Source: Nitrososphaeraceae archaeon (lineage in GTDB: Archaea > Thermoproteota > Nitrososphaeria > Nitrososphaerales > Nitrososphaeraceae). Taken from it: a stretch of DNA of 64,000 nucleotides. The notes under the pieces are model-generated. The model was not told where the DNA came from. It saw only the letters and a program-made list of their open reading frames with translations, and did no database searches. Below, in pieces: positions 1 through 3,449 of this stretch (its first letter is position 1; each line of letters opens with the position of its first letter). The translations under genes were made by a program, and so were the position numbers. The DNA lies in NCBI GenBank assembly GCA_035297365.1, contig DATGZA010000014.1, positions 64,001-128,000 on the forward strand. The letters run 5' to 3'.

Positions 1-416
1 CGAGATGATAAAACACGTAAAGAATTGATATCAAAAGACTTGTCAACTTCATCCAAATCTTTTTTATTAAGAATTTTCATTTTATCTTCTCTTAGTTTTC
101 TTCGTTCATGTCTATAGAGAATATAAGACTTCGCAGTATCTGCAAGACCATCTTCTATTAGAATTGATTCAACTATATCCTGAACATCTTCAACACTGGG
201 AATTAAGCCCTTTTCAAATGAATTCCTAGTGATCTTTTCTAATACCTTATGACTCAACGTTTCAGCTAGTTTAAAATCTGGTTTACCAGTTGCAACCAAT
301 GCCTTGTAAATAGCATGTGATATTTTTGCTTCATCAAAATTAACAACTCTACCATCTCTTTTTTTTATTTGAAAAATAGAATTATTTTTTGGTTTGTCTA
401 CTTCAGATACTCCCAT
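1..416 (-). CDS. nrdJ: Ribonucleotide reductase, probably class II (B12-dependent); 5' part only, runs off the window
   Basis: Manual translation from ATG at 416: MGVSEVDKPKNNSIFQIKKRDGRVVNFDEAKISHAIYKALVATG...PSVEDVQDIVESILIEDGLADTAKSYILYRHERRKLR, an N-terminal ATP cone of RNR type. Class II is inferred from lineage; the catalytic core is not visible. Confidence 0.75.
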   Translation of the reverse strand, partial: MGVSEVDKPKNNSIFQIKKRDGRVVNFDEAKISHAIYKALVATGKPDFKLAETLSHKVLEKITRNSFEKGLIPSVEDVQDIVESILIEDGLADTAKSYILYRHERRKLREDKMKILNKKDLDEVDKSFDINSLRVLSS

Positions 417-450
417 ACAGCTCGCCTTCCAATTTTTTAACAATCATCAT

Positions 451-460
451 TATTTATAAG
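451..460 (-). promoter_or_regulatory. Putative TATA box of nrdJ
   Basis: Minus strand CTTATAAATA about 35-45 nt upstream of the ATG at 416. Confidence 0.45.
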
Positions 461-519
461 AATTGTGAATTGAAAATACCAATAAAAATATTATATCAGG
501 GAGGTTAGATACAATTTTA

Positions 520-537
520 AACCCTAGATTTTGGGTT
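520..537. promoter_or_regulatory. Palindromic operator candidate (NrdR-box-like)
   Basis: AACCCTAGATTTTGGGTT is an inverted repeat; its 16-bp core resembles the NrdR box acaCwAtATaTwGtgt; it lies upstream of nrdJ. Confidence 0.45.
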
Positions 538-591
538 ATTGATCCATCTAAATCATATATGTCAATAGATAGATTCTACAGTTATTTGTTA

Positions 592-2754
592 TTATATAGA
601 TATTAATGAAATCTTATGAGAACCACAATATTCACAAATTCTATTATTAGTACATTGGGATCGTTTTCCACAAATATTGCATATTGCCAACCCAAAGGTC
701 ATCCGAACAAAAGGGAGATCCAGTGATGATTCAATTAATGTTCTAACCTCTTCATCGGTAGAAATATTTTCAATATCAAGATCAATAGAAAGATTTCCTT
801 TCAGAATTTTTTCTACAGCACAGTAATGATCACATACTGATTTCAAAGAAAGATTATTTGAAAGGACATCTGTGCCTTTAATTTGAAAACCTTGTGAATA
901 GAGCTCTTGTTTATCGTTAGATGAATTGTCAGAAATTGCAATAGATTTACCGTATTTCTCATTGTCTAAACTCTTGAATCGATTTGAACTTTCATCTTTT
1001 AATATGGCTATCCCTATACTTGAATTTGATGATTCTTTAGTTTGTTCACCTATTATATCTACAGCCGTCTGTAAAACTTTACAAACAATATTTTCAGATT
1101 CGTTTCCAAATTTGTAACCTAAAATATTATAAATTGATTCATTAATTCCAACTAAATTTATCATAGCATCTATCTTACCAAGTTGTAGATTAGAAGTAAT
1201 TTTTGTTAGGAGTGGTGTAGTTCCCTTTTGTATATGCTCGGATATATTACTCACACGCTGGTAGATGACAGATATTAACGGTTTAAGCAATAACGCAAGT
1301 CTTGCTCTAAAATATGTCTCATCCCTATTTGATTGATATGCTATTCGTGGAAGATTTATTGACAAAGATTGAAGTGTTACTACCGTAGTTTTTACGGAAG
1401 GATGAACTGGTTTGCAAAGCCCGTACCTTCCCCGTATTTTTTGTTGAGAAAATGACATAATTCCACCAAGTCTAGAAATCTTTACAATTTTATCAGTGTA
1501 TTTGTAAATGGTGTTTCGGTCTTCATAGACGAGAGACAAACCAATATTAGGAATAGGTGTATTTACTATGTACCTGTAGTATCCATCAATTACGATATCT
1601 ATCAGGGACGAATTAGAGTCATCCAGATTGATAGGCAATGTGATGTAAGGGGAAAATGAGGAAACAGATGATATTGAAGATGAAAGAAAAAGGATTTTAG
1701 AAACTTTATTAACAAGATTTTCGCCTGTCTGAGCATATTTCCCAAGAAACTCGATGAGTCCTTCTAAAACCACTTCACGAGAAACCTCTCTAGTTAAAAG
1801 AGAAAGTAACAAAGGAATAATTGAATCATAATCATGTGCATTACACAATGACGTTATCCTTGAAATCCCTAGATACTTCCCTTTAATATGAGAAAGACTA
1901 TCTACTACAGAATTTAGATTGATAAAAATTGTATCAGGAAGTAAATTCCAGAAACCGCTCTTTCCAATATTAATTTCACCCATCAAATGCATGTCTACAA
2001 TATCTTTTGGGAGAGAATTATTAAGCAGATATTCAGTAAAAATTGAAGATGACGTTTTTATGAAAAGATCAGGAATTTCTACATTCGAACTTGTATCATT
2101 AATAATATTTATCAAATCTATGGGGGGTATTCCTAATCTTGCAAGTTTATTTCTATATTCATCATATCCATGATCTACTAGCACTGAATTGGTAGTTTCC
2201 CTTATTAGTGATGATGTAAGATAAGATGTTTGAATTTTGTAGATCTTATTCTCCACTTCCTCCGTAATCTTATTTGCAAGTTCCAAAGGCATATTCGCTT
2301 CACGTACTAAAGACTGAATGATTTTATTAGAATCAAATTCTTCTATCGAAGGTTTGGTAGTCCTAACATACAACTTACCGCTTTCTATTATCGATCTTTC
2401 CTCTATTTGACGAGCGAGACTTAAAACTAATTTACCTAGATTAGTTATAGTATATCTCCTTTCTGCCTTGTTAAGAGACACTAAAGATTGTCTGAGTAAT
2501 TTTCTTAGATGATAAGCAAATTTCCCAGATTCTTTCTTTGATTTAAATCCTGCTAATGATTTTAATTCGGAATAAGTTAATGGTCCCTTAGAATTTAAAA
2601 TTCTGAGAATATCAATACGATTAGGACTAGCCATGACTGAAAAAATCATTCTTACACGTCTTGAAGCTGATTCTAAAATTCCACCACGTTTCAAACTAGT
2701 CCTATTTGTGGTTTGGTATTGCACTCGCTCCATTGCACCCGTTATAATTAACAA
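592..2754 (-). CDS. ArsR-type HTH + ATP cone + degenerate class III RNR (NrdD-like) fusion
   Basis: N-terminal wHTH (NRIDILRIL..GPLTYSELKS..FAYHLRKL); ATP cone (YVRT..IEEFDSNKIIQSL); NrdD motifs (SINLPRIA, INLVGINE); C-terminal CxxC..CxxC ribbon; no glycyl-radical RxxGY loop. Confidence 0.8.
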   Translation of the reverse strand: MLIITGAMERVQYQTTNRTSLKRGGILESASRRVRMIFSVMASPNRIDILRILNSKGPLTYSELKSLAGFKSKKESGKFAYHLRKLLRQSLVSLNKAERRYTITNLGKLVLSLARQIEERSIIESGKLYVRTTKPSIEEFDSNKIIQSLVREANMPLELANKITEEVENKIYKIQTSYLTSSLIRETTNSVLVDHGYDEYRNKLARLGIPPIDLINIINDTSSNVEIPDLFIKTSSSIFTEYLLNNSLPKDIVDMHLMGEINIGKSGFWNLLPDTIFINLNSVVDSLSHIKGKYLGISRITSLCNAHDYDSIIPLLLSLLTREVSREVVLEGLIEFLGKYAQTGENLVNKVSKILFLSSSISSVSSFSPYITLPINLDDSNSSLIDIVIDGYYRYIVNTPIPNIGLSLVYEDRNTIYKYTDKIVKISRLGGIMSFSQQKIRGRYGLCKPVHPSVKTTVVTLQSLSINLPRIAYQSNRDETYFRARLALLLKPLISVIYQRVSNISEHIQKGTTPLLTKITSNLQLGKIDAMINLVGINESIYNILGYKFGNESENIVCKVLQTAVDIIGEQTKESSNSSIGIAILKDESSNRFKSLDNEKYGKSIAISDNSSNDKQELYSQGFQIKGTDVLSNNLSLKSVCDHYCAVEKILKGNLSIDLDIENISTDEEVRTLIESSLDLPFVRMTFGLAICNICGKRSQCTNNRICEYCGSHKISLISI

Positions 2755-2840
2755 GTAATTAAAACTACTTTGTAAAGTTTTTTTTACAAATAATATAATG
2801 TATTGTAATTAACCAATTGAACAAATAAAATTAATAACTG

Positions 2841-3449
2841 TTATATCAAAACTGGTTGACCTTCATGAAACTCGTTATCTTGTTCCTTGTAAATTCGTTT
2901 TTTATGTATACGAGTCGGTACTTCCGGAAGCTTGTTTTTAGTATCCTCTTCCATTGCAGATTGTACTTCATTAAGAATCTCCAATGCCTCAGCGTTTACA
3001 GGATATTGAATAGTGTCTGACTGTAAGTTTAGGTTAGTATTAATCAAAACATCTTCAGTTAAAGATGACATTTCTGAGAAAAGTAGTTTTGCTTGTGGAA
3101 CTGTATCAACTATATCTATCTGAACTTCTTTTATTGTATTAATCATTGGATTTATTGTATCTAAAATTCCAGCAAATTCGGAAATCGTAGAAAATCTAAT
3201 AACTATTACCTCCAGTGCCATTGACAATTTTTGTGTTATATTCTTTATTTTCCTAATATTTACCAATTCGCGAGCAATGACTTTAGCGTTACTAGTATCA
3301 CCGTTCTTTACGTTAATTGCAACTTTAACACATAAATCCCTATCAAGTGAGGCGAATCTTTTGTCAAGTATCCTCAGTTTAGCAAGTTGTGTATTAACAA
3401 CGACGGTTGCATGAGCAAGTCTGTTTTGAAGCTGGGGATACTTTTCCAC
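2841..3449 (-). CDS. cdvB: ESCRT-III/Snf7-like CdvB paralog
   Basis: Helical Snf7 pattern (AKVIARELVNIRK..LSMALEVIVIR..EALEILNE..KLPEVP); start uncertain. Confidence 0.7.
   Translation of the reverse strand: MEKYPQLQNRLAHATVVVNTQLAKLRILDKRFASLDRDLCVKVAINVKNGDTSNAKVIARELVNIRKIKNITQKLSMALEVIVIRFSTISEFAGILDTINPMINTIKEVQIDIVDTVPQAKLLFSEMSSLTEDVLINTNLNLQSDTIQYPVNAEALEILNEVQSAMEEDTKNKLPEVPTRIHKKRIYKEQDNEFHEGQPVLI

Follow-up and report, generated by a model that had tools for sequence, protein, structure and literature searches.

Our analysis concerns one gene in a 64,000-nucleotide (nt) stretch of contig DATGZA010000014.1 of a Nitrososphaeraceae archaeon (hereafter the window), which encodes a winged helix-turn-helix (wHTH) domain, an ATP-cone and the body of an anaerobic, class III ribonucleotide reductase (RNR), NrdD, in a single chain and lies next to nrdJ, the gene of a class II RNR. 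Judged from the sequence, the protein is a dead paralogue of archaeal NrdD that acquired an N-terminal ArsR-type wHTH, and it is predicted to be unable to work as a class III RNR. We consider it moderately probable that this dead-NrdD protein acts as a nucleotide-sensing transcription regulator of deoxyribonucleotide supply, tied to the RNR genes. An original prediction, made from the letters of the window, had described it as a functional analogue of the bacterial regulator NrdR built from an enzyme scaffold.

According to a passage of PMC11226230, the catalytic residues of the P. copri NrdD (PcNrdD) are the finger-loop Cys416, the first-strand Cys171 and the C-terminal Gly711. The corresponding columns were read in an alignment of 50 family members against five genuine NrdDs, which are encoded beside family members in other genomes, score 481–527 bits with Pfam NRDD and carry QCC, RPFCQ and R[IV]TGY. 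The active-site Cys motifs had earlier been described as unrecognisable in the window protein, and the alignment agrees: the first finger-loop Cys is present in none of the 50 members (0/50), the second in two (2/50) and the first-strand Cys of the RPFCQ column in none (0/50), the window protein having Thr at this position (LLPDTIF). Near the finger-loop tip the window protein reads RYGLCKP, with its Cys three columns past the second reference Cys; this residue is unconserved even among the closest relatives. The radical Gly was found in 10 of the 30 tailed members, in just one of them as RxxGY, and its column is a gap in 16 of the 20 tail-less ones. No member (0/50) combines the finger-loop Cys, the first-strand Cys and the radical Gly.

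The glycyl-radical loop RxxGY, already reported as missing, is indeed absent after the Zn ribbon: the window protein stops 10 residues past the last Zn-ribbon Cys, where its frame ends in ...CNIC..CEYCGSHKISLISI followed by two TAA codons (the second at 589–591), so that no such loop is encoded in any continuation of the frame. The Zn ribbon itself is retained, with C692, C695 and C707 invariant and C710 present in at least 90% of the members; residues are numbered throughout in the 720-amino-acid (aa) open reading frame (ORF) that starts at position 2754. The absence of the activase gene nrdG, first noted for the window, was extended to the whole genome (2.52 Mb, 97.1% complete), in which all NrdG models remained far under their cut-offs: TIGR02491 reached at best 32 bits (cut-off 126), TIGR02495 46 bits (131) and TIGR02826 29 bits (152). 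The best match of all three models (NrdG, NrdG2 and NrdG3) is a QueE-like radical S-adenosylmethionine gene, which sits between a QueC-like gene (below its cut-off) and a FolE gene. Neither a second NRDD match nor a separate glycyl-radical fragment was detected in this genome. Since the genome is 97.1% complete, NrdG is reported as not found, short of proof of absence. With both radical Cys residues and the Gly loop gone, and the genome search having returned no activase, class III RNR activity is not expected of the protein.

The proposed fusion of a wHTH, an ATP-cone and an NrdD-like barrel was recovered by Pfam, by an AlphaFold2 (AF2) model and by a family profile. Pfam HTH_20 matches residues 41–92 with 32.0 bits (cut-off 27) and DUF7347 residues 37–111 with 40.1 bits (cut-off 27.6); on the same domain HTH_5 (arsR) scores only 10.9 bits and NCBIfam HTH_metalloreg 23.6 bits, below its cut-off. 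The Pfam ATP-cone model matches residues 129–200 with 36.2 bits (cut-off 25.8), and NRDD matches residues 458–716 with 58.8 bits, covering profile positions 276–534 of 562 only. The score with TIGR02487, the NCBIfam equivalog model of NrdD, was 54.5 bits, well under the cut-off of 326.35. In the AF2 model (mean predicted local distance difference test score 86.6, predicted template modelling score 0.77) the wHTH consists of helices 26–40, 44–56, 61–67 and 73–88, strands 92–95 and 100–103 and helix 105–125, an order that matches the ArsR-like alpha1-alpha2-alpha3-alphaR-beta-beta-alpha5 topology.

The best Foldseek matches of this model in the PDB were NrdD chains only, with template modelling scores of 0.53–0.67 (normalised by target). 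A profile built from 50 family members matched the solved NrdDs with E values of 2.3e-39 (8P23), 2.4e-39 (9D3X), about 4e-34 (4COI and 4U3E) and 8.5e-30 (1H78), in an alignment that spans the entire barrel; NrdD was recovered by the family profile only, as a single-sequence search of the PDB gave no significant NrdD match (best E 0.84). The profile matches together with the AF2 and Foldseek matches identify the fold as that of NrdD. The same profile also weakly matches HlyU-type chains (E 0.007–0.009). A homodimer prediction with two copies of residues 26–215 gave a score of 0.33, against a mark of 0.42 and controls at 0.00, a value that speaks neither for nor against a dimer.

The domains differ in how strongly they are conserved within and between two groups of family members, A (the closest forms, including the window protein) and B (more distant). 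Mean pairwise identity of the wHTH is 0.67 within A, 0.43 within B and 0.35 between A and B; for the ATP-cone the values are 0.61, 0.63 and 0.53, which makes it the segment best conserved between the groups, and for the barrel segments 0.21–0.36, 0.26–0.38 and 0.14–0.28. In the recognition helix G77, F79, Y81, H82, L83 and L86 are invariant or near-invariant, and the stretch GKFAYHLRKL is near-invariant. The cone residues V130, R131, E138, F140, I145, R185, R206 and G208 are invariant across the family; by a mapping to canonical cone residues that is a reading of the Pfam coordinates, R131, E138, Y200, R201 and R206 are invariant or nearly so and K144 is the majority residue.

The motifs VRTS, YL(T/S).PLIRE and TRLG.P are common to the family cones and to the cones of the five genuine archaeal NrdDs, and the cone of the neighbouring NrdJ carries the canonical KKRDG, unlike the VRTS type. 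Because genuine NrdDs nearby in other Thermoproteota share this unusual type, we take the family ATP-cone to be inherited from working NrdD enzymes of the same lineage. Three barrel motifs held in common with NrdD, NLPR, GL.E and R..LD (R592..D597), are likewise invariant or near-invariant, the last of them adjoining the position of the substrate-bridging Glu581 of PcNrdD. As these motifs persist, part of the former nucleotide pocket may survive in the barrel.

Among 1.84 billion representative proteins, 881 matched at E ≤ 1e-3 and 149 at E ≤ 1e-30. In group A (about 650–720 aa) the chain ends at the Zn ribbon; in group B (about 740–800 aa) a tail homologous to the glycyl-radical domain is kept, with a degraded motif. 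According to the source names, group A belongs to Nitrososphaerota/Thaumarchaeota and one group B cluster to Bathyarchaeota. One entry of a group B cluster, P0296, is labelled ‘Candidatus Dormibacteraeota bacterium’ and comes from a 3.6-kb contig; the other members of its cluster are archaeal or unnamed, and the bacterial label is probably a binning error. A third form of about 560–660 aa (P0218, P0222, P0229, P0231, P0233 and others) matches the wHTH and the cone and has no Zn ribbon. As had been suspected, members of the family are often mis-annotated: among the top 120 matches, 25 of the 32 named entries are called (anaerobic) ribonucleoside-triphosphate reductase, a label that would wrongly imply anaerobic synthesis of deoxyribonucleoside triphosphates (dNTPs) in aerobic ammonia oxidisers.

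Of 401 genomes sampled from the phylum, 285 gave a match at E ≤ 1e-5, the weakest of which may involve the HTH or the cone only, and all 59 genomes of the same order (59/59) gave a strong one (E 1e-82 or better, mostly full-length). Within the Nitrososphaeraceae the family was found in 112 of 121 genomes, and in 80 of the 81 high-quality ones; the former tally takes in two unpublished genomes, G475 and G433, both of which matched, and becomes 110 of 119 without them. Genuine NrdD exceeded its cut-off in two genomes of an order sample of 151, which includes the unpublished G603, and a sub-threshold NrdD-like match was present in 130. A quick unrooted IQ-TREE tree of the cone and barrel placed the five genuine NrdDs beyond one branch and united group A in a single clade, both with a Shimodaira–Hasegawa-like approximate likelihood ratio support of 100. 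Unrooted as it is, the tree is compatible with a dead form that arose once and in which the tail was lost later.

The prediction that the gene stands directly upstream of, and co-oriented with, an RNR gene with an ATP-cone proved correct. The neighbour is 175 bp away on the same strand, its product scores 750 bits with TIGR02504 NrdJ_Z (cut-off 400), and it also matches Pfam ATP-cone, Ribonuc_red_lgN and lgC. A check of this synteny in other genomes had been recommended, and the arrangement holds across ammonia-oxidising archaea. In the order, 30 loci were compared, from the own genome, a second Nitrososphaeraceae genome and 28 members of the sister family (taken here to be Nitrosopumilaceae). 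In 29 of them nrdJ is the next gene downstream, in the same orientation; the 30th locus has just 289 nt of downstream sequence. The same holds for three further order loci with 17 kb of sequence (L074, L076 and L077), and in L078 nrdJ is nearby, divergent, with one ORF between. Among 31 Nitrososphaeraceae loci nrdJ is downstream in 22, which is 22 of 28 testable ones as three end too early. Outside the order an RNR gene follows immediately on the same strand in seven of 35 loci, five times a genuine nrdD (Pfam NRDD 481–527 bits) and twice a class II gene. In two of these regions a glutaredoxin-like ORF of about 100 aa stands between the dead and the genuine nrdD (L053 7333..7659 (-) and L059 9452..9757 (+)); it may encode the reductant of the neighbouring class III enzyme. 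The simplest history would be a tandem duplication of nrdD beside pyrB (aspartate carbamoyltransferase), after which one copy gained the HTH and lost the chemistry; later the enzyme gene would have been replaced by nrdJ or lost, and the dead copy stayed.

These domains, the pattern of selection and the gene neighbourhood argue for an NrdR analogue, and from them we infer that the protein binds DNA and senses nucleotides, as well as which genes it would target and in which direction. The wHTH would bind DNA and the ATP-cone, inherited from the parental enzyme, would report the ATP/dATP state; the dead barrel and Zn ribbon would form a scaffold, probably a dimer as in NrdD, which may keep a nucleotide pocket. 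Nucleotide binding would then shift occupancy at the promoter of the RNR gene immediately downstream, which is nrdJ in the present genome and nrdD in anaerobic relatives; occupancy of the gene's own promoter would probably shift as well. NrdR itself, for which a genome search had been advised, was not found in the own genome and exceeded the cut-off in one of the 151 order genomes, which is 88% complete with 4% contamination. A passage of PMC9110341 likewise describes NrdR as rare in archaea. With NrdR not found in the genome and rare in the order and in archaea, the niche of such a regulator appears open. A broader proposal is more tentative: across much of the Thermoproteota, including the globally abundant ammonia oxidisers, the duplicated, HTH-fused and inactivated NrdD could be the main transcriptional switch of dNTP supply, responding to ATP/dATP through the cone whichever RNR class is present, and possibly sensing dNTPs through the fossil active or specificity site. 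The protein would then be an archaeal counterpart of NrdR that evolved independently from the enzyme under its control, a part of the proposal that we hold just as tentatively.

Several observations weigh against a regulator of the adjacent RNR gene. All of the evidence is comparative, and the compared genomes are related rather than independent. The cone has Val at the first basic position of the canonical KR pair, a variant found in genuine archaeal NrdDs as well. One order locus, L075, has no nrdJ within about 8 kb; in six of the 28 testable Nitrososphaeraceae loci (L091–L096, from two genera) the dead-NrdD gene is intact and other sequence follows it for at least 1.4 kb; and 28 of the 35 loci outside the order have no adjacent RNR gene. 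The promoters add to this list. A BRE/TATA-like block, TACAAAGTAGTTTTAAT, in front of the dead-NrdD gene is nearly invariant in 31 Nitrososphaeraceae loci whose encoded proteins are 50–100% identical. It may be a plain TFIIB recognition element (BRE) and TATA box, with or without an autoregulatory site. In the 2.52-Mb genome it occurs once exactly, four times with up to two mismatches and 50 times with up to three, and a scan up to three mismatches found no copy at nrdJ, so the scan gives no evidence of a regulon.

Likewise, across 11 sequence clusters of Nitrososphaeraceae, no GC-containing k-mer was common to the own-promoter and the nrdJ upstream regions, which have A/T-rich words alone in common. 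The sole inverted repeat of the spacer is already gone in relatives with 95–96% identical protein; this candidate operator, AACCC-N8-GGGTT (about 508–526), was rejected, its counterpart reading GCATT or TGGTT in L079 and L080. When 22 family spacers were compared, nrdJ upstream regions had only TATA-like boxes in common between genera, and the upstream regions outside the order (L039–L073) yielded generic TATA-like boxes only. In the Nitrososphaeraceae the link between the dead-NrdD gene and nrdJ is therefore one of position alone. The NrdR-analogue reading is partly supported, by the inactivity as an RNR, the mis-naming, the synteny with nrdJ and the failure to find NrdR; a search in the Nitrososphaeraceae for a cis-element common to the gene's own promoter and that of nrdJ gave none.

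Since pyrB adjoins the gene in 10 of the 35 loci outside the order (L039, L042, L046, L047, L050, L052, L054, L064, L067 and L072), the target may extend beyond RNR or be another one. The main alternative, which we regard as unlikely, is accordingly a nucleotide-responsive transcription factor with a wider or different regulon in nucleotide metabolism that is not, or not mainly, nrdJ, with genes of pyrimidine synthesis (pyrB), replication or the cell cycle as candidates; the RNR adjacency would be a relic of tandem duplication. It would accommodate the lack of a motif common to the two promoters, the six Nitrososphaeraceae loci in which the intact gene has lost its neighbour, and the loci in which pyrB lies beyond the RNR gene, namely just past it in L043 and L053 and past nrdJ in L074, L076 and the own genome (L006 3466..4437 (+), outside the window). 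However, as a direct neighbour pyrB is mostly convergent and not downstream of the dead-NrdD gene, and the gene remains upstream of, and co-oriented with, an RNR gene even after the change from class III to class II, which is hard to explain by a relic alone.

A regulator of transcription also has to be weighed against a modulator at the protein level, a pseudo-subunit that would bind the working RNR or one of its partners, for instance through contact between the cones, with an HTH that is vestigial or serves protein contacts. ATP-cones mediate nucleotide-dependent oligomerisation in RNRs and in NrdR; both the dead-NrdD protein and NrdJ have one, and the barrel and Zn ribbon have been kept. 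This role is nevertheless improbable, as the wHTH is the best-conserved domain in the ammonia-oxidiser group (0.67) and has a complete ArsR-like topology, and the class of the partner RNR varies between lineages. Very improbable indeed is a surviving enzyme, either an RNR with its Gly-radical domain in trans or a barrel recruited to non-radical nucleotide chemistry: the conserved NLPR, GL.E and R..LD motifs, and the part of the pocket that may survive, would suit it, but both radical Cys residues are gone in addition to the Gly loop, no activase, second NrdD-like gene or separate Gly-radical fragment was detected in the genome, and the organism has a complete class II RNR.

The favoured regulator can be compared with several known systems. 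With the NrdDs of T. maritima (4COI), P. copri (8P23), S. thermophilus (9D3X) and phage T4 (1H78) the dead-NrdD protein has in common the ATP-cone, the 10-stranded barrel and the Cys4 Zn ribbon, and in the cone and linker it carries the motifs of genuine archaeal NrdDs; it differs from them in the extra wHTH and in the missing thiyl-radical Cys, first-strand Cys and glycyl-radical loop. NrdR provides the principal route known for controlling RNR transcription in bacteria. Like it, the dead-NrdD protein joins an ATP-cone to a putative DNA-binding module and is encoded in linkage with RNR genes; unlike it, the module is a wHTH instead of an N-terminal Zn ribbon, the chain is about five times larger and includes the body of a dead enzyme, the NCBIfam matches listed at E ≤ 1 do not include TIGR00244, and no paired sites resembling NrdR boxes were identified. 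The ArsR/SmtB regulators (e.g., HlyU, 3JTH) resemble the wHTH by an HTH_20 match above the cut-off and by the ArsR-like topology in the model, whereas here some 600 residues of ATP-cone and barrel continue the chain after the wHTH. Regulators made from inactive enzyme folds fused to a wHTH are known in B. subtilis PurR (PRTase-like) and NrtR (Nudix-like). The principle would be alike, with a ligand domain derived from a pathway enzyme serving as the sensor and encoded near the pathway genes, the function being a predicted one in the present case; the enzyme fold, the archaeal host and the two potential nucleotide sites (cone and barrel) are different.

To our knowledge, no control of RNR gene expression has been described in archaea, and our literature searches found none. 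Nor did we find a description of the wHTH, ATP-cone and NrdD architecture in the literature covered, which comprised neither supplementary files nor subscription journals; within PMC9669993, a term search gave no mention of it in the text it covered. The family is therefore of interest as a widely conserved and directly testable candidate for the control of RNR expression in archaea, in which an enzyme has been recast as a probable regulator of its own pathway and stands beside the RNR gene even where class II replaces class III. The present work contributes the parental origin of the cone, the domain-wise pattern of selection, the census of genuine NrdD, NrdR and NrdG, a revised start codon together with the promoter block, as well as the negative operator search in the Nitrososphaeraceae and a set of GATC clusters in the sister family.

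These clusters were found in ten 20-kb regions (L108–L117), where the two spacers flanking the dead-NrdD homologue hold 95 GATC in 5,830 nt (16.3 per kb) and 60 other intergenic spacers 30 in 11,994 nt (2.5 per kb); 19 of the 23 GATC-densest spacers are the flanking ones. Across 28 sister-family loci (L011–L038) GATC occurs at 20.7 per kb upstream of the gene and at 12.6 per kb between it and nrdJ; the coding sequence has 3.5 per kb, and about 3 per kb are expected from base composition. Some of the upstream sites lie inside an unannotated small gene for a Zn-ribbon protein, and the compared genomes are mutually related. The sites resemble AAAA(C/T)TGATC(T/C/A)AAA, and some loci, L017 among them, pack about nine copies into 200 nt, with perfect palindromes like TTGATCCA..TGGATCAA included. 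A strict triplet pattern had nine matches in one complete Nitrosopumilaceae genome, none at the locus, and being too strict was replaced by the comparison of densities. Because GATC clusters are absent from the window's own family, although the wHTH is very similar, we regard them as an unexplained lead rather than the operator.

The coordinates of the gene and its surroundings are collected in Table 1. The span 416–2754 had been assigned to a protein of 720 aa, and the ORF does have 720 codons, initiated at TTG (592..2754 (-)); position 416, however, is the ATG of nrdJ and lies outside the dead-NrdD gene. The true start is most likely the ATG seven codons inside this ORF, which gives a 713-aa product, because database homologues measure 711–719 aa and a conserved promoter/Shine–Dalgarno (SD) block lies just 5' of that ATG. 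The GGGTGCAATGGA start context is kept in 31 Nitrososphaeraceae loci, with GGGTGCA preceding the ATG.

Table 1. Positions of the dead-NrdD gene, its domains and adjoining elements in the window.
Feature	Position	Strand	Basis or remark
Dead-NrdD gene (wHTH + ATP-cone + dead NrdD-like, probably 713 aa)	592..2733	-	ATG 2733 (most likely start), stop TAA 592-594
ArsR/SmtB-type winged HTH, residues 37-120	2395..2646	-	Pfam HTH_20, DUF7347
ATP-cone, ‘VRTS’ type, residues 128-210	2125..2373	-	Pfam ATP-cone, 36.2 bits
NrdD-like alpha/beta barrel, residues 211-688	691..2124	-	Family profile vs PDB, Foldseek, Pfam NRDD
C-terminal Cys4 Zn ribbon (C692, C695, C707, C710)	595..690	-	Alignment; invariant residues
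Promoter block TACAAAGTAGTTTTAAT (BRE/TATA-like)	2758..2774	-	24 nt 5' of ATG
Spacer between dead-NrdD gene and nrdJ	417..591	-	22 family spacers compared
TATA-like CTTATAAATA in the spacer	451-460	-	
Leader of ~20 nt, AAATTGGA(A/C)GGCGAG(C/T)TGT, just 5' of nrdJ ATG	~417-436	-	Conserved within genus
nrdJ, 5' part (class II B12-dependent RNR, N-terminal ATP-cone)	3..416 (ORF 3..416/443)	-	Remainder beyond window

The leader in front of nrdJ is kept down to relatives with 78% identical NrdJ and does not read as protein in every one of these; an SD region, an RNA element and a protein site are candidates for it. In full, nrdJ encodes 908 aa (L006 5718..8444 (-)), and the C-terminal tail of its product, whose N-terminal ATP-cone is canonical, is Cys-rich (CPSCKSK..CNVCIECG). 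According to a passage of PMC11226230, fewer than 10% of class II RNRs have an ATP-cone.

Metatranscriptome contigs from four soil or outdoor runs of three studies span most of the dead-NrdD gene at 95–100% identity, and one of them leads from the coding region across the stop to position 458. They attest presence in RNA libraries, with no strand or level information, and are weak evidence that the gene is expressed, because contigs of this kind neither reveal where transcripts end nor rule out carried-over DNA.

The genome encodes a third ATP-cone protein, of 278 aa, with an ATP-cone, an Mrr_cat restriction-endonuclease domain and an AF1548-like C-terminal domain (L007 2035..2871 (+)); its gene lies at about 257.5 kb of C14, outside the window, and its cone is in neither an RNR nor an NrdR. 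On the 5' side of the dead-NrdD gene, a 202-aa protein is encoded at 2841..3449 (-), with a weak match to Snf7/ESCRT-III (E 0.0015, 18.7 bits, below the cut-off), which could be a CdvB-like cell-division protein.

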